Assembly: GCA_965263035.1 (NCBI GenBank)
Contig: OZ253580.1
Location: 1,280,001 to 1,344,000 of the forward strand
Length of the DNA stretch: 64,000 nucleotides
Direction of reading: 5' to 3'
Source: Acidobacteriota bacterium
GTDB lineage: Bacteria; Acidobacteriota; UBA6911; RPQK01; JAJDTT01
The notes under the pieces are model-generated. The model ran no database searches and was not told where the DNA came from. It saw nothing but the letters and a program-made list of their open reading frames with translations. Shown here in pieces: positions 28,014 to 34,241 of the stretch (within the stretch, counting starts at the first letter, position 1; each line of letters opens with the position of its first letter). A program made the position numbers and the translations under genes.

Positions 28014-29508
28014 CATTTTCAGGGTCCCTGGTAACCGCACCAGTGGAGGGCTGTATTCCGCGGCTCTACGCCGGGCACGAACGTTTCCTCTTCTCCTGCT
28101 CTCGGCTTTCCTGGCCGGATTCTCCTTCGGATGCACCCGGCAGCTCGAGCGGCCGAACATCGTTTTGATCCTGGCCGATGACCTGGGCTGGAACCAGTTG
28201 GGCTGCTACGGAAGCAGTTTCTACGAGACTCCCAACCTCGACGGCATGGCTCGAGAGGGGATGCGTCTCACCGACGCCTACGCGGCCAGCCCCGTCTGCT
28301 CCCCGACTCGAGCCAGCATCATGACGGGCAAGTACCCGGCGCGACTCCACGTCACCAAGTTCATCTCGCCGCAGGACTACGTCCCCAACCCGAACGCCAA
28401 GCTGTTGGATCCCGACTGGACACCCTATCTGCGCTTGGAGGAGGAGACGATCGCCGAAGCCTTGAAGAAGCTGGGGTACGTGACGGCCGGCTTCGGAAAA
28501 TGGCACCTCAGCCGCGTCAAGACGCCTCCCGAGAGCCTGCCCTTCAATCCGGACAAGCAAGGTTTCGACCAGCACTTCGTAACCTACAAGCCGGTCCCAT
28601 CCATGGCCAGGAAGTGGCAGACGCCGGAGGACGATGCCCACAACGTGGGAATCATCACCGAGAAGTCCCTGGAGTTCATGGAGAAGAACCGTGAGAGGCC
28701 CTTCTTCCTCTTCGTTTCGCACAACAGCATTCACACCCCCCTGGTGGAGAAGAAGGCTCTGATCTCCAAGTACCGGAGGAAGCCGGACGTCGACTCTCCC
28801 ACCAACCACCCGGTTATCGGAGCCATGATCGAGACCCTGGATCGCAGTGTCGGCCGGCTGCTGGCCAAAATCGACGAGATGAAGCTGACCGAGAGGACCC
28901 TCGTGCTTTTCTATTCCGACAACGGAGGATTGGATTGGACCGCGACCGAGGGGCAGATCGCCGCCAACGATCCGTTGCGGGCCGGAAAGGCCGACCTCTA
29001 CGAAGGGGGAATCCGGGTGCCCTTGATCGTCCGCTGGCCGGGCCGAATCCCCCCCGGCCGCGTCTCCGGGGAACCTGTCAACAGCGTGGATCTCTTTCCC
29101 ACGCTGCTGGAGGCAGCCGGAGGCACCGAGACGGGCAAGGACACCGACGGCATGAGCCTGCTGCCGCTTCTCACGGGGCCCGTGGTCCCCGGCCGGGACG
29201 CGCTCTTCTGGCACTACCCCCACTACCACAAGTTCGGAGCCTTCCCTTCGAGCGCCATCCGGAAGGGTGAGTACAAACTGATCGAGTGGCACGAGGCCGG
29301 GATCTACGGATCGGACAATCGGTACGAACTCTACGACTTGGTGGACGATCTGGGGGAGTCTCGAAATCTGGCCTCCGTCCTGCCGGAGAAGACCCGGGAA
29401 CTGGCAGCCGACCTGGAGAACTGGCGGCGCTCGGTGGGAGCCCAGATGCCGAAGCGCAACCCCGACTATCGGCCGGAAGGCCAGCCGCGGGCGCGTGACC
29501 GGGAGTAG
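27967..29508 (+). CDS. Sulfatase (S1, Cys-type)
   Basis: RPNIVLILADDLG, VCSPTRASIMTG, GKWHL, SDNGG, YEGGIRVP; true start uncertain and probably downstream of 28013. Confidence 0.9.
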   Translation: MVGPTPTWISSAGSRSIFRVPGNRTSGGLYSAALRRARTFPLLLLSAFLAGFSFGCTRQLERPNIVLILADDLGWNQLGCYGSSFYETPNLDGMAREGMRLTDAYAASPVCSPTRASIMTGKYPARLHVTKFISPQDYVPNPNAKLLDPDWTPYLRLEEETIAEALKKLGYVTAGFGKWHLSRVKTPPESLPFNPDKQGFDQHFVTYKPVPSMARKWQTPEDDAHNVGIITEKSLEFMEKNRERPFFLFVSHNSIHTPLVEKKALISKYRRKPDVDSPTNHPVIGAMIETLDRSVGRLLAKIDEMKLTERTLVLFYSDNGGLDWTATEGQIAANDPLRAGKADLYEGGIRVPLIVRWPGRIPPGRVSGEPVNSVDLFPTLLEAAGGTETGKDTDGMSLLPLLTGPVVPGRDALFWHYPHYHKFGAFPSSAIRKGEYKLIEWHEAGIYGSDNRYELYDLVDDLGESRNLASVLPEKTRELAADLENWRRSVGAQMPKRNPDYRPEGQPRARDRE

Positions 29509-30187
29509 ATCGATGCCGGGAACCGGAAGAGACTCGGGGCGGCTCCGATTTCAGCCATGGGCGGGACCGCGAGGAAAGGTGGCCATCCATCTCGCCCTGG
29601 TTCTCGGCGTGGCCTTTTCCGCCGGCTGGCCGGCAGAAGGCCTCGCCGCCGCCATCCCCATCGGCCGGGAAAAGCAGCTACTCTGGGACGACTATCTGAT
29701 CGAAACGCTCCATAACACGGGGTTCGTGCTCAACCAGGCCGAAAAGGCCCCCAACAACCCGGTGATTCGGCAGGACCGGCCCTGGGAAGGGAATCTGATC
29801 CGGGTCGCCACCGTGTTCTACGACGAAGACCAGGGCCGGTTTCGGCTCTGGTATACGTCAGAGAACGTGAAACCTTCTCCCGGCGACCGCTGGGAGAGGT
29901 CCGGGCAGATCGTCTGTTACGCCACCTCCAGGGACGGATACCGGTGGACAAAACCCAACGTCGGCCGGGTGGACTTCAACGGATCGACCCGGAACAACAT
30001 CCTGGACGGCCGGAGCTGGCCGGGATTCAAGGGTGGGATCATCCGCGATGCCCACGATCCCGATCCTTCCCGCCGGTACAAGGGGTTGGTCATGAGCGTG
30101 GCGGGACCGGAGCCCAACTCGACCTCCAGTCCGGGAATGCGCTTCGACCTCTACTACTCGTCCGATGGCTTCGAGTGGGAGCCCTAT

Positions 30188-30345
30188 CAGCCCGTGGCAA
30201 AAGTCGTCGCGGCATTCGACCGTCCCTGCATCCCGGCGGACTGCGTTGCGATTCGGTCACATACTCCCGGTATGCTCCCTCATCGCGCCTTGTCCGGCGG
30301 GCGCAGGAACGGTCTCGGTGCTCGCGAGACTTTCACCACGGACTG
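30188..30345 (-). mobile_element. MITE family B, copy 2, in-frame inside a CDS
   Basis: Reverse complement of 24786-24943; CTAT/CTAT duplication; 158+4 = 162 bp = 54 codons with no stop. Confidence 0.9.
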
Positions 30346-30798
30346 CTATGCCGGCAACCCCGTCATCGACTGGGGAGAGAGACGGGGCCGCTGGGGCCCG
30401 ACGGCATTGATGGGCTGGGATCCGATACGCGGAGTGTACACGGCCCATATGGAGGTCTGCCGTCATCGGAGATGTCCCCGGAACCGGCGTCTGATCGGAC
30501 GGGCCGAAAGCCCGGACCTGATCCGCTGGACCGAATCCGTTCCCATCCTGGTTCCCGATTCCGGCGATCCCCCCGACACCGAGTTCTACAGCTTCTGGGC
30601 GATTCCCTACCACGGCAGGATCGCGGGAATGCTCTGGACCTTCCGGACCACGAACACGGTCATGTACCCTCAGTTCACCTTCAGCCGCAACGGAATCCAC
30701 TACGACCGGCGGTTTCGCGAGCCCCTGATTCCCCTGGGCGCGAACGGCGCCTTCGACAGCGTGCTGCAGCCCGTCGTCCACGGCGAAAGGATATTCAT

Positions 30799-32042
30799 GG
30801 GGATTATATGCCTAAGTGCCGAGAATTCAGGCTGATGGTTTACAATTCCTACCATGAAAGGCCACGCAACTATCCAGTGCAGAGCCAAGCTGTCCAAGGG
30901 TGGAATCCGGCGGTTGGACGGGGTGAGGTCCATCCTGAATCGGCTGTACAACGCTGCACTGGAGGAACACAGGACGGCCTGGGAATCCGAGCAACGCGGC
31001 GTGACCCTGTACGATCAGATGAAGGGGTTGACCTCCAAAAGGAAGGAGGATCCGGAGGGGCTCGGGTCAGTGGCGGTCAAGGCGGAGCGGGGGATGCTGG
31101 TTCGGTTGGACCGGGCCTTCAAGGCGTTCTTCCGTCGCTGCAAGGCGGGGGAGAAGCCGGGGTATCCTCGATTCCGGCCCATTGCGAGGATGGAGACCAT
31201 CGACGTCGTCGACCCCAAAGCGACCATGGTGAAGAAGCGCGCTCGGGGCTACGCCATCCGGCCCAAGGGCTTTCCGACGATCCGGATATTTCCCTCCCGG
31301 CCGTTGCCGGACGGATGCCCGTTGAAAGCGTTGCGGATTGTCCGCAAGCCGAACCGGGTGTATGTGGACCTGACCTACGAGGTGGAGAAGCCGCCGCTAC
31401 CGAAATGCGAGTCTTCGGTGGGGATCGACCTGGGAGTCCGCAAGCGAGCGGTGCTGTCCACGGGTGAGAGGATCGAACGGAATCGACGGGACTGGGGGGA
31501 GATCCGAAAGCAGCAGAGAAAGGTCTCCAGGTGCAAGAAGATTTCCAAGACCAGACGGAAACGGATCGTACAGCTATCTCGGCTCCGTCACCGGGAATCG
31601 GTCCGAAACCGTAATGCCTGCCATCGTCTCTCCACCAGGATCATTCGTGAGCACGGTCTGATCGCTGTGGAGAAACTGAACATCCAAGGGATGGTGACGA
31701 AGGGCTCGAAGAAGAAGGGGCTGAATCGAGAAATAATGACGCAATCATGGAGGCTTCTGCGGAATCAACTCCAGTACAAGGCAGAATGGGCCGGTCGGAA
31801 GTTCGTAGAAGTGAATCCCGCATATACATCGCAGGACTGCCACCGGTGCGGCGCCCGCCACGATCCAGGACGGAGCGAAACCTTCCGGTGCAGGGCCTGC
31901 GGACTTGGAATGGACAGGGACCACAATGCCGCCCTGAACATTCTCAGGGCTGGGGTTCTTGCCCTGGGCACCGGAACGTATCTCGTTGGGGAAAGCGTGG
32001 TGCCAGAACTGTATGCCAATGGCACTTAGGTATATAAGCCCC
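30799..32042 (+). mobile_element. Non-autonomous TIR element (IS1595/ISNwi1-like ends) carrying tnpB
   Basis: Left end GGGGATTATATGCCTAAGTGCC, right end GGCACTTAGGTATATAAGCCCC (20/22 inverted match); ATATTCAT duplicated at 30791-30798 and 32043-32050; no transposase. Confidence 0.88.
30854..32029 (+). CDS. tnpB: RNA-guided endonuclease TnpB
   Basis: RLYNAAL, GYPRFR, RuvC-I GIDLG, RuvC-II AVEKL, LQYKAEWAGR, zinc finger TSQDCHRCG...FRCRACG, RuvC-III DRDHNAALNI. Confidence 0.93.
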   Translation: MKGHATIQCRAKLSKGGIRRLDGVRSILNRLYNAALEEHRTAWESEQRGVTLYDQMKGLTSKRKEDPEGLGSVAVKAERGMLVRLDRAFKAFFRRCKAGEKPGYPRFRPIARMETIDVVDPKATMVKKRARGYAIRPKGFPTIRIFPSRPLPDGCPLKALRIVRKPNRVYVDLTYEVEKPPLPKCESSVGIDLGVRKRAVLSTGERIERNRRDWGEIRKQQRKVSRCKKISKTRRKRIVQLSRLRHRESVRNRNACHRLSTRIIREHGLIAVEKLNIQGMVTKGSKKKGLNREIMTQSWRLLRNQLQYKAEWAGRKFVEVNPAYTSQDCHRCGARHDPGRSETFRCRACGLGMDRDHNAALNILRAGVLALGTGTYLVGESVVPELYANGT

Positions 32043-32062
32043 ATATTCATCTACTACCGGGG
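31945..32062 (+). ncRNA. Predicted 3' part of the TnpB omegaRNA scaffold plus flank-derived guide
   Basis: Stems CAGGGC/GCCCTG, GGCACC/GGTGCC, an AGAA linker, stem TGTATGCC/GGTATATA; loop TGGGG complementary to terminal CCCC(A). The 5' end is unknown. Confidence 0.55.
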
Positions 32063-32489
32063 GCGGAACTGGCGGGCTCCGGGGCAACTGGACCGGCTGG
32101 GCGAAGCGAGGGCTCAGGGAGCCGTCGGCCTGGCGGTGCTGCCGCTGGACGGCTTCATCTCCCTGGACGGAGCCGCCACGCCCGGCGATTACAGCGAAGT
32201 GGTCACGCGCTCCTTCGTCTTCTCCGGAAACATCCTCCTCCTCAACGCGCAGGCCGGGATACCGTCCCAAGGCAACGTGGCCGAGGTCCGTGTGGAGATC
32301 CTCCGGCCCGACTCCTTCCCCGTCCCGGGCTACAGGTTCGAGGAGACCGACCTGGTGGACGCCGCGGGTCCGGCGAGCGCCGCGAGCTGGCGGGGTGGAG
32401 ACGGGGACGTGGGCCGGCTGGCCGGCCAACCCGTCAAGCTCAAGTTCTACTTCCGGCACACCAAACTGTACTCCTTTCAATTCCGGTAA

Positions 32490-32647
32490 CAGTCCGTGGT
32501 GAAAGTCCCGCGAGCACCGAGACCGTTCCTGCGCCCGCCGGACAAGGCGCGATTCGGGAGCATACCGGGAGTATGTGACCGAATCGCAACGCAGTCCGCC
32601 GGGATGCAGGGACGGTCGAATGCCGTGACGACTTTTGCCACGGGCTG
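32490..32647 (+). mobile_element. MITE family B, copy 3 (158 bp)
   Basis: Near-identical to 24786-24943; GTAA/GTAA duplication that includes the upstream TAA stop codon. Confidence 0.88.
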
Positions 32648-32657
32648 GTAAGGACCG

Positions 32658-34241
32658 ATGAAGGCTCCCCTTGCGGCAATCCTATCCTTGTCTCTCGGCG
32701 GTCAGTGTCTCGCCGAGCTCATCGAGATCGGCACCCGGAAGCAGCTTTTCTTCGACGACAACCTAATCGAAAGCAGGACCGGGGCCCGGCAGGTGCTGAA
32801 TCCGGCCGTCAAGCTGGCCGGCAATCCCGTGGTCCGGCAGGACAGGCCCTGGGAAGGCAACGACATCAAGTACGGCAGCCTCGTCTACGATCCCGAACGA
32901 AGGCTATTCAGGATGTGGTACTGGAGCCAGACGGTCGAAAAGAGGGACAAGGAGGATCACTACGACGCCAGGAAAGCCTGCTACGCCGTCTCCCGCGATG
33001 GCTACCACTGGGAGAAGCCGGCGCTGGGCCTGGTGGAGTTCGAGGGATCGACGGCAAACAACATCCTGGGCGAAGAGAGCTACCCCCAGGAGAAGCACGG
33101 CACGACGACCGAACCCGGCAGGTTCAAGGGCGGCATCTTCCTCGACCCGGTCGAAAAGGATCCCCGGAAGAGGTACAAGGCGTTCTCCCGCTCCTGGGCC
33201 GAGGGGGCGGTACCGGGGACCGATCTTCCCAAGGGCTTCCGGGTCTGGAATCTCTTCACCTCCCCCGACGCATTCCGCTGGACGCCCTACCCCGGGAATC
33301 CCGTCATCGAGCCGAAGGGTGTCCCGAAACGACATCCGGAGGGGGAACCCTGGGCTAGACGGAAGGGCTATCAAGGATACCTCTGGGGACCCACGTCGAT
33401 GATGGGGTGGGATCCGATTCGTCAAGTCTATGCCGCGTACATGGAGAACTGCCAACACAAGCGATGCCCCCTCCGGAAGCGGGTGATCGGCCGGGCCGAA
33501 AGTCCCGATCTCGTCAACTGGAGCGAACCCTCGACCCTTCTCGTTCCCGACGGCCAGGACCCGCCGGACCTCCAGTTCTACGCCCTGCATGTCTCCGCCT
33601 ACGAGGGGTATTACGTGGGCATGTTGTGGTGTTACCGGGCGTCGAGCCCGGCCACCCGATGGATCCAATTCGTCTTCAGTCGAGACGGGATCCGGTGGGA
33701 CCGCCGCTATCGCCGCCCCTTCATCCCGCTGGGCCCGCCCCCGGAATTCGATTCCGCCGTGATCGCCGCTCTGGCTCCCGTCGTCCACGACAACGAGATC
33801 TTCTGCCTCTACTACGGAAAGAACTTTCGTGACCGGCGGTTGGATCAGATCGGAGGTCCCGCCGTGGGAGCCATGGGCCTGGCGGTGCTGCCCCTGGACG
33901 GTTGGGTCTCGCTCGAGAACGACGATCAGACCCGCAACCGCTACGCGGAGGTGGTCACCCTTCCCTTCACGTTTTCGGGAAGCCGGCTCCAGGTCAACGT
34001 CGGCCCCCAGGTTGATGGAGAGAGCGCCCGCTTCAGCTTGAATGTGGAAATCCTGGCACCGGACCACTTCCGGGTGAAGGGCTACAGCTTCGAGGAGTCC
34101 GATTCCATCACTCGGGGAGGGGTGGCCCGGGTCGCAAGCTGGAATGGAGAGGACGATCTCAGCTCGTTGGCCGGGAAGCCGATCAAGCTGAAGTTCTACC
34201 TGAAGAACGCCCGGCTCTTCTCCTACCAGTTCGTCCCCTGA
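32658..34241 (+). CDS. Secreted beta-propeller GH-like protein (paralog 4)
   Basis: Signal peptide; IGTRKQLFFDD, CYAVSRDGYHWEKP, MENCQHKRC, DGWVSL, RLFSYQF. Confidence 0.78.
   Translation: MKAPLAAILSLSLGGQCLAELIEIGTRKQLFFDDNLIESRTGARQVLNPAVKLAGNPVVRQDRPWEGNDIKYGSLVYDPERRLFRMWYWSQTVEKRDKEDHYDARKACYAVSRDGYHWEKPALGLVEFEGSTANNILGEESYPQEKHGTTTEPGRFKGGIFLDPVEKDPRKRYKAFSRSWAEGAVPGTDLPKGFRVWNLFTSPDAFRWTPYPGNPVIEPKGVPKRHPEGEPWARRKGYQGYLWGPTSMMGWDPIRQVYAAYMENCQHKRCPLRKRVIGRAESPDLVNWSEPSTLLVPDGQDPPDLQFYALHVSAYEGYYVGMLWCYRASSPATRWIQFVFSRDGIRWDRRYRRPFIPLGPPPEFDSAVIAALAPVVHDNEIFCLYYGKNFRDRRLDQIGGPAVGAMGLAVLPLDGWVSLENDDQTRNRYAEVVTLPFTFSGSRLQVNVGPQVDGESARFSLNVEILAPDHFRVKGYSFEESDSITRGGVARVASWNGEDDLSSLAGKPIKLKFYLKNARLFSYQFVP

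Follow-up and report, generated by a model that had tools for sequence, protein, structure and literature searches.

A 1244-bp insertion in the genome of an Acidobacteriota bacterium carries, as its sole gene, an intact tnpB encoding 391 amino-acid residues between terminal inverted repeats (TIRs) that resemble those of resident insertion sequences (ISs) of the IS1595 family. The insertion occupies positions 30799-32042 of the stretch of DNA analysed here, a window of 64 kb that belongs to one 6.2-Mb contig (C1), and it is flanked by an exact 8-bp target-site duplication (TSD). The element is likely a non-autonomous cassette of tnpB and a guide RNA (ωRNA), which would be moved in trans by an IS1595-family transposase, with a motif in its left flank serving as the target-adjacent motif (TAM) of TnpB and with restorative homing after the empty site has been cut.

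TnpB, from which Cas12 has evolved, is a compact nuclease of use in genome editing. To our knowledge, its natural role has been clarified solely in elements of the IS200/IS605 and IS607 types. These elements excise without scars, and their fixed target doubles as the TAM. The locus described here bears on the question of how TnpB could help a cut-and-paste DDE transposon that makes a variable duplication.

The cassette, its copies and a candidate helper

The two TIRs of the window element are identical at 20 of 22 positions (Table 1). A repeat search stretched the inverted arms to 24 nt at 92% identity because the duplication starts and finishes with AT. With up to three mismatches allowed, the 22-mer was found at only two sites in the 64-kb window and at none in 100 shuffles, and a chance duplication was rejected. 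The start codon of tnpB is only 55 nt from the left end, and its stop codon lies within the right TIR. Scripted deletion of positions 30799-32050 yielded a single frame of 581 residues without an internal stop, which is colinear across the junction with the neighbouring paralogue at 32658-34241 (VVHGERIFIYYRGRNWR vs. VVHDNEIFCLYYGKNFR). The initial annotation of the locus, made from the DNA alone, had described a 1244-bp element with 20/22 TIRs, an exact 8-bp duplication, TnpB as the only product and a host reading frame that is restored upon removal, and this anatomy proved correct in every detail.

The encoded protein matches the Pfam families OrfB_IS605 (PF01385; E = 3.2e-18, 66.5 bits with a cut-off of 30.5) and Cas12f1-like_TNB (PF07282; 5.9e-26, 90.8 bits with a cut-off of 26.3) and the NCBIfam family guided_TnpB (1.3e-63, 215.6 bits with a cut-off of 100). 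Residues D192, E273, D354/D356, C329, C332 and C349 do not vary across an alignment of eight sequences extending down to 47% identity; in our reading, these columns would correspond to the catalytic motifs GIDLG, AVEKL and DRDHNAA. The nearest solved structures are those of TnpB in entries 8bf8, 8exa and 8h1j (E = 2.5e-31 across residues 31-376), which we take to be the ISDra2 enzyme, and the best plasmid-borne matches are TnpBs of Deinococcus with ~39% identity. The ratio of non-synonymous to synonymous substitution rates (dN/dS) of tnpB is 0.11-0.24 between subfamilies of the cassette (9 pairs, with dS up to 1.5). Thus, the gene has been under purifying selection while located between these ends, and the substitution rates indicate that TnpB is kept functional. 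A dead passenger gene was rejected on the same values.

A second copy of the cassette is located on the opposite strand at C1:1946003-1947246. It differs from the first copy at 2 of the 1244 bases, and its 8-bp TSD, ATAAAATA in the orientation of tnpB, is unlike that of the first copy. In the genome, 23 occurrences of the TIR pattern were counted, as compared with none of a reversed control, and perfect 8-bp duplications were found at 14 of the 15 TIR pairs enumerated. Eight of these pairs are copies of a single IS, seven of them 1762-1763 bp long and one with a further insertion. The ends of this IS, GGGGATTATATACGAAAGTGCC, match each end of the window element at 19 of 22 positions, and it makes 8-bp duplications too. 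It encodes a protein of 334 residues with matches to DDE_Tnp_IS1595 (5e-38), Zn_ribbon_IS1595 and the NCBIfam family transpos_IS1595 (1.4e-52; cut-off 75). The best plasmid-borne relatives of this transposase have no more than 40% identity and are labelled only "IS1595 family transposase". Four further IS1595-type families in the genome have the same outer 11 bases at their ends.

All ten loci in the genome that match PF07282, the zinc-finger family of TnpB, are copies of the cassette with these ends, either intact, internally deleted or 5'-truncated. No tnpB-free miniature inverted-repeat transposable element (MITE) with these ends was found in the 6.2-Mb genome; the sole short pair of ends belongs to a 649-bp, internally deleted tnpB copy. 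Among 89 rows of scanned TIR pairs, duplicates included, none combines a transposase with TnpB. Since the window element does not encode a DDE_Tnp_IS1595 transposase, it is not an autonomous IS of the IS1595 family. It fits a non-autonomous derivative, with family-like ends (19/22 here and 21/22 in a sister genome) and 8-bp TSDs at 24 independent insertions. IS200/IS605 elements, including those of the IS1341 type, are not a suitable class for an element with 22-nt TIRs and an 8-bp TSD, and Y1_Tnp gave only two matches in the genome, both of them weak (39 and 36 bits) and distant from every tnpB.

In the sister genome (G001/G408), 11 near-full copies of the cassette with at least 96% identity are present together with at least four copies of the 1762-bp IS, the transposase of which is 98% identical. 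There, the left TIR of the cassette and the TIR of the IS match at 21 of 22 positions. The tnpB copies in the various genomes form five subfamilies, which have the outer 10-11 bases of their ends in common; the inner halves differ and change jointly on the left and right. The subfamily of the window co-occurs with the 1762-bp IS in both genomes where this subfamily is multi-copy. The locus also illustrates how a non-autonomous cassette tracks a resident helper, as the inner repeat halves of the cassette agree with the ends of this candidate helper. The initial annotation had suggested mobilization in trans by an IS1595-type transposase and had asked for further tnpB copies with different 8-bp TSDs and for IS1595 transposase genes between such TIRs. 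Both were found, i.e., the near-identical second copy plus the set of 24 independent insertions, and the transposase-bearing ISs with 8-bp TSDs. The suggestion is, therefore, largely supported by the second copy, the shared ends and the duplications, from which mobilization itself is deduced.

The IS1595-type elements of this genome (G000) show some further peculiarities. Members of the ISNwi1 subgroup of the IS1595 family carry passenger genes, and their ends presumably follow the consensus ggnnatTAT, to which the initial annotation had likened the ends of the cassette. In the 1762-bp IS (G000:C1:1740263-1742024 and seven more copies, e.g., L020), ~700 bp downstream of the transposase gene have no Pfam match. 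A 127-codon open reading frame (ORF) in this segment starts with MNENRLIFGDNLEVM, which presumably resembles the N terminus of a DNA methyltransferase, and may represent what is left of a passenger gene. One copy of the IS (G000:C1:976200-979730) has grown to 3531 bp by a nested insertion encoding a protein of 470 residues that, by eye, looks like a transposase of the IS4/IS1380 type. Another IS1595-type element is represented by a solo end 25 bp upstream of this copy. A 5983-bp element (G000:C1:2907203-2913185) has IS1595-type ends matching at 21 of 22 positions, a transposase of 330 residues, several additional ORFs and a duplication of which only 5 of 8 positions match. Either an IS1595 relative with cargo or a pair of elements enclosing host DNA could account for it. 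The Y1_Tnp match of 39 bits (L249; G000:C1:3477718-3478472) is a frame of 133 codons between palindromes of the GGGGGTTAAAAACCCCC type and is presumably a REP-associated tyrosine transposase (RAYT) rather than a TnpA of the IS200/IS605 type.

A predicted ωRNA and a one-sided flank motif

The last ~110 nt of the element are conserved among the copies. RNAalifold analysis of 14 copies produced a consensus structure of 30 base pairs, nine of which show compensatory double changes, e.g., CAGGGC/GCCCUG vs. GGCGGC/GCCGCC and GGCACC/GGUGCC vs. GGUGCC/GGCACC. An architecture of three hairpins was also recovered in 6 of 7 copies that were folded singly. In the third hairpin, the right TIR is paired with a GUAUG-type segment upstream and with an inner segment that is specific to the subfamily, leaving ~7 nt (AAGCCCC) unpaired at the extreme end of the element in the predicted fold. 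Supported by this covariation, a putative ωRNA overlaps the 3' end of tnpB and reaches the right end of the cassette. A similar arrangement, with the TIR in the scaffold, was reported for the guide RNAs (reRNAs) of Fanzor proteins in TIR transposons, which extend ~15 nt past the TSD (Yoon et al., 2023, PMC10711439). By analogy, the guide of the cassette would consist of the duplication and the adjacent flank. Of the 18 right ends listed, 17 are followed directly by an A.

As the 8-bp TSD is variable, the flank, together with the bases that open the duplication, would have to supply most of a TAM. The insertion sites were compared in this genome and five congeners. After removal of duplicates, 21 tnpB insertions with at least 7 of 8 matching duplication bases were retained; with two others and one from genome G405, the set comprises 24 independent insertions, all with 8-bp duplications. 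The statistics refer to 23 of them, read in the orientation of tnpB. As a control, 18 transposase-bearing insertions (36 ends) were selected with the same filter. The left junction reads G|A in 22 of the 23 tnpB insertions and also in the 24th, that of G405, which brings the total to 23/24. When the right junctions are read from the outside inward, G|A is found in only 5/23 (Fisher p = 3.8e-7 vs. left), and it is found at 10/36 ends of the transposase-bearing elements (Fisher p = 1.3e-7 vs. tnpB left). The consensus at the left junction is GG|AWA, which can be extended to (A)nnGG|AWA (base counts in Table 1). The two G residues at -1 and -2 lie outside both the element and the duplication, and they are present on the left side only. 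The preference of the transposase-bearing elements, in contrast, is symmetric, with G or C outside and A/T-rich sequences inside, and shows no bias by gene orientation. In the empty site, the motif found at the left end only precedes the target. It sits where the TAM would lie for a guide that is read out of the right end and is, therefore, best read as the TAM of TnpB. At the right end of the element, the occupied site reads ...GCCCC|A, i.e., without the motif, and the element itself would therefore not be cut.

A less likely explanation, which has to be taken seriously, is that the cassette is moved in trans but that the one-sided GG|AWA is set by the insertion machinery or by some other asymmetry, with TnpB as a mere passenger. 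For example, asymmetric subterminal binding sites could orient the transpososome on its target, in which case the targets of the guide would be unlinked to the choice of site. Consistent with this possibility, the transposase-bearing relatives also favour octamers of the type S|WW....WW|S and have G|A at the 36 ends in the proportion given above, so part of the motif is an ordinary site preference. However, when these relatives are oriented by their gene, G|A is found at 6/18 left and 4/18 right junctions, which does not amount to a one-sided bias. Moreover, the bias persists in tnpB subfamilies whose two repeats agree over the outer 11-13 bases, and the G residues at -1 and -2, outside the element and its duplication, are exactly at the position of a TAM for a right-end guide.

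For a cassette that is mobilized in trans and maintained by TnpB, we infer the following course of events from the sequences. The DDE transposase of the resident 1762-bp IS most likely excises and inserts the cassette. It would recognize the shared ends, which start with GGGGATTATAT, and insert at AT-rich octamers, thereby generating the 8-bp duplication. TnpB and the ωRNA in which the right repeat is embedded would be expressed from the cassette, and transcription out of the right end would provide a guide made up of the 8-bp duplication together with the right flank. At sites whose left flank provides approximately GG|AWA, TnpB would be able to cut the empty copy of the site, which may be the sister chromosome or a site that was resealed via the 8-bp microhomology after excision, and recombination with the occupied copy would restore the element (restorative homing). 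Only insertions whose empty allele can be cut by TnpB would then be maintained or spread, and these are the ones that would remain over time. The flank signature makes the question of TAM and homing in such transposons directly testable. Together, this locus and ~24 sister insertions form a natural data set, with a candidate TAM derived from flanks alone, an ωRNA whose last stem would be the transposase site, and a candidate helper in the same genome.

Table 1. Features of the insertion in window coordinates, and base composition at the left junctions of tnpB insertions
Feature	Position	Strand	Details
Interrupted host gene	29495-32492	+	Pieces 29495-30798 and 32051-32492
Left flank -5 to -1	30786-30790	+	AAAGG; seat of the one-sided TAM-like motif A-n-n-G-G preceding the duplication
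Target-site duplication, left copy	30791-30798	.	ATATTCAT, exact 8 bp
Left TIR	30799-30820	+	GGGGATTATATGCCTAAGTGCC; 22 nt; 19/22 vs. end of resident 1762-bp IS1595-family IS
tnpB	30854-32029	+	391 aa; only long sense ORF; RuvC D-E-D and zinc-finger cysteines kept
Putative ωRNA scaffold	31933-32042	+	Three hairpins over the 3' end of tnpB; RNAalifold covariation
Right TIR	32021-32042	-	GGGGCTTATATACCTAAGTGCC on the minus strand; 19/22 vs. end of the 1762-bp IS
Target-site duplication, right copy	32043-32050	.	ATATTCAT, exact 8 bp
Inferred guide segment	32043-32062	+	Duplication plus adjacent flank, read out of the right end; from TnpB/ωRNA geometry and Fanzor reRNA analogy
Left flank, position -5			A in 14/23
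Left flank, position -2			G in 16/23
Left flank, position -1			G in 22/23
Duplication, base 1			A in 23/23
Duplication, base 2			A or T in 23/23
Duplication, base 3			A in 17/23

Relatives and the origin of the ends

In a scan of species-representative genomes, close relatives of the TnpB, with 74-97% protein identity, were found only in four metagenome-assembled genomes (MAGs) of Acidobacteriota; the same scan detected a 45%-identical copy in a SAR202 MAG. The clade is present in 2 of 401 genomes sampled from the phylum and in 6 of 137 from the class. All clade-positive genomes belong to the genus of the window and comprise five of eight congeners and the genome studied here. A metagenome scan with the alignment of eight TnpB sequences, the patterns of which were generic TnpB motifs, yielded relatives with at most 48% identity. 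In a protein search, 3994 proteins had an E value of 1e-40 or lower among the 8000 candidates scored, many of them with 45-60% identity. Two metagenome contigs encoding TnpBs with 44-48% identity end in GGGGCTTACATACGAGAGTGCC and GGGAGTTATATACATTAGTGCC. The initial annotation had proposed to examine whether the tnpB clade is consistently flanked by such TIRs, and this is the case for all ten loci of the genome as well as for these two metagenome relatives.

A general search for TIRs covered 79 loci: 72 from metagenomes, five distant ones from genomes, the SAR202 copy (L058) and, as a known positive, L034. Scores stayed at background (7-13) except at three loci, L178 (19), L058 (17) and L034 (14). 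Since the known positive scored only 14, the scan is not very sensitive; L169 and L234 were recognized later through their right ends. L178, on a metagenome contig (positions 3371-4682), encodes a TnpB with 36% identity between 22-nt repeats, GGTAGAGTCTCAGTTTGAAATC, that match at 21 of 22 positions, and has no evident duplication. It may be a further tnpB cassette, with TIRs of another type.

It is very unlikely that the mobilizing transposase belongs to another family, with the likeness to IS1595 ends being convergent or superficial. Three subfamilies lack a cognate transposase-bearing element among the loci examined, and the SAR202 (Chloroflexota) copy, with 45-47% identity, has quite different repeats of 17 nt and a duplication of 7 bp. 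However, the resident IS1595-family IS matches the cassette ends at 19-21 of 22 positions, has the length of the duplication and the preference for AT-rich octamers in common with it, and accompanies the window's subfamily in both genomes mentioned above. Even less probable, and rejected here, is the possibility that an ordinary IS1341/IS605-type tnpB once landed in a small MITE with IS1595-type ends and kept its own ends inside: the closest plasmid-borne and solved TnpBs, i.e., those of Deinococcus (39%) and 8bf8/8exa/8h1j, are of the IS200/IS605 type, and the clade therefore descends from such elements, but separate IS605 ends would not fit into the 55 nt before the start codon or beside a stop codon that lies within the right repeat, the last stem of the RNA and the repeats covary by subfamily, the association of TIRs and tnpB is long-lived (it holds through dS ~1.5 and down to 44-48% protein identity), the genome search for Y1_Tnp placed no IS200/IS605 tnpA near any copy, and an empty MITE with these ends, which the initial annotation had named as an alternative host for a nested IS1341, is absent from the 6.2-Mb genome.

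Several observations weigh against a cassette that is moved by an IS1595-family helper and maintained through its ωRNA. The ends of the window element differ from those of every transposase-bearing element in this genome (19/22). The three subfamilies for which no transposase-bearing partner was found among the loci examined are those with the inner halves ...CTTGAC, ...GTTTGA and ...CTAGAC; ends of the ...CTTGAC type were also not found at 12 IS1595-transposase loci from sister genomes. Genome G003/G152 contains five copies of the cassette and only a broken IS1595 transposase match. As to the RNA, z-scores of single folds range from -4.5 to -0.25 and are modest in four of seven copies (-1.55, -1.97, -0.25 and -1.09), and folding energy alone is therefore weak evidence. 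The RNA region is also coding, which is an independent constraint on the predicted ωRNA, and Rfam gave no matches in window positions 30500-32400. As to the motif, the insertions were drawn from six related genomes and five subfamilies, so that the p-values overstate their independence, and only 18 elements, whose inner repeat halves are different, make up the small control. The count excludes four full-length copies whose duplications have decayed, with the left junctions G|A (L036), G|T (L046), A|G (L003) and G|G (L044), and it also excludes copies truncated at the 5' end. Finally, no empty allele was found: the left-flank DNA matched only paralogues with at most 73% identity in nine genomes of the genus, and the eight congeners contain no close orthologue of the host gene. 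Contigs from four runs, aligned to window positions 30300-32500, contain no empty-site joint and break at the ends of the element; since assembled contigs drop rare variants, this search cannot show the absence of an empty allele. Positions 31232-32060 are spanned by contigs of an RNA library, which as assemblies do not bear on transcription, strand or RNA ends.

Relation to known systems and neighbouring sequences

Six branches of DDE-associated TnpBs (DDE-1 to DDE-6), all with inverted terminal repeats, were described previously (Altae-Tran et al., 2023, PNAS, PMC10691335). In these branches, the 3' end of tnpB is near the end of the transposon, and the ends of some solo TnpBs are almost the same as those of elements that encode a transposase; on this basis, the authors proposed mobilization in trans (PMC10691335). 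The window tnpB, located between inverted terminal repeats common to DDE-transposase-bearing elements, corresponds to these branches in all three respects. The difference is that none of the elements scanned here holds both genes. The clade of the window may or may not already be included in one of DDE-1 to DDE-6. The suggestion in the initial annotation that the combination may be undescribed was, thus, too strong, since DDE-borne and trans-mobilized solo TnpBs were published in 2023 (PMC10691335). The design has been published, and the locus is a further case of that kind.

As to the family of the helper, the main text of that paper names only IS630 (for DDE-6); "IS1595" does not occur in it and appears in the PDF of its supplementary information only in a list of comparator families (PMC10691335). 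A review of 2026 adds ISL2 and IS1031 to the DDE families linked to TnpB (PMC13565253). It further describes TnpB-DDE transposons as rare in prokaryotes, for which inflexible target recognition is given as one possible cause, and mentions that the TSD of Fanzor elements contributes to the TAM (PMC13565253). Judged by title and abstract, none of the papers retrieved in a literature search dealt with a pairing of TnpB and IS1595, and a wider search likewise returned nothing on IS1595. Thus, the helper family IS1595 is possibly unnamed in print in this context, as far as these sources go. An analysis of flanks or TAMs is not part of the text consulted of PMC10691335, and the one-sided flank signature is what the locus adds anew.

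Compared with TnpBs of the IS200/IS605 type, the cassette has the same combination of OrfB_IS605 and TNB zinc-finger domains, the RuvC D-E-D residues and a putative ωRNA over the 3' end of the gene. However, the hairpin ends without TIRs or TSD, the fixed target of 4-5 nt that serves as TAM and the Y1 TnpA transposase of IS200/IS605 elements are not found here. With ISs of the IS1595 family, it has in common the ends starting with GGGGATTATAT and the 8-bp duplication. Whereas the resident members of that family encode a transposase with a zinc ribbon and DDE_Tnp_IS1595, the cassette is without a transposase, its cargo is an RNA-guided nuclease, its predicted RNA makes use of the right TIR, and its insertion sites have the extra one-sided motif.

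In 2013, Bao and Jurka reportedly identified Fanzor1 and Fanzor2* in TIR transposons of eukaryotes and viruses. As far as the sources on Fanzor go, the similarities with the cassette are a TnpB-type nuclease on cut-and-paste transposons with TIRs and TSDs, the frequent presence of the nuclease only, a TIR in the RNA scaffold and a guide that continues past the TSD. In contrast to the eukaryotic and viral elements with their short, sequence-specific TSDs (TA, TTAA), the cassette is bacterial and has a variable 8-bp TSD. A more far-reaching interpretation, which is put forward tentatively, is that TnpB and its ωRNA have been stably built into a bacterial IS1595-type transposon as a prokaryotic counterpart of Fanzor1. 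In such an element, the right TIR would be both a transposase site and the last stem of the ωRNA, the guide would consist of the variable duplication and the flank, and the TAM, approximately GG|AWA, would act as a filter on the persistence of insertions of an otherwise loosely targeted DDE element, with both the IS1595 pairing and the flank signature being unreported. If true, this would be direct evidence, at the level of genomes, for RNA-guided homing of transposons that make TSDs.

No Pfam family was matched by the interrupted host gene. It belongs to a paralogous family of proteins of ~530-580 residues, with no function assigned by Pfam, of which two tandem members are present in the window (29495-34241). 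Many paralogues per genome are found across the genus, with 64-73% nucleotide identity; at the DNA level, about 8-12 matches per genome were counted in 9/9 genomes of the genus. The window further contains a repeat of ~165 bp at positions 30182-30348 (+) and about 32487-32653 (-). Its ends, CAGCCCGTGG...CCACGGACTG, are inverted at 9 of 10 positions with TA on both sides, and it resembles MITEs that duplicate TA (IS630/Tc1-mariner-like). At least 40 copies of this repeat with 93-99% identity are present in each of 9/9 genomes of the genus. One copy is located in frame within the host gene, where it adds ~55 residues that are absent from the paralogue.

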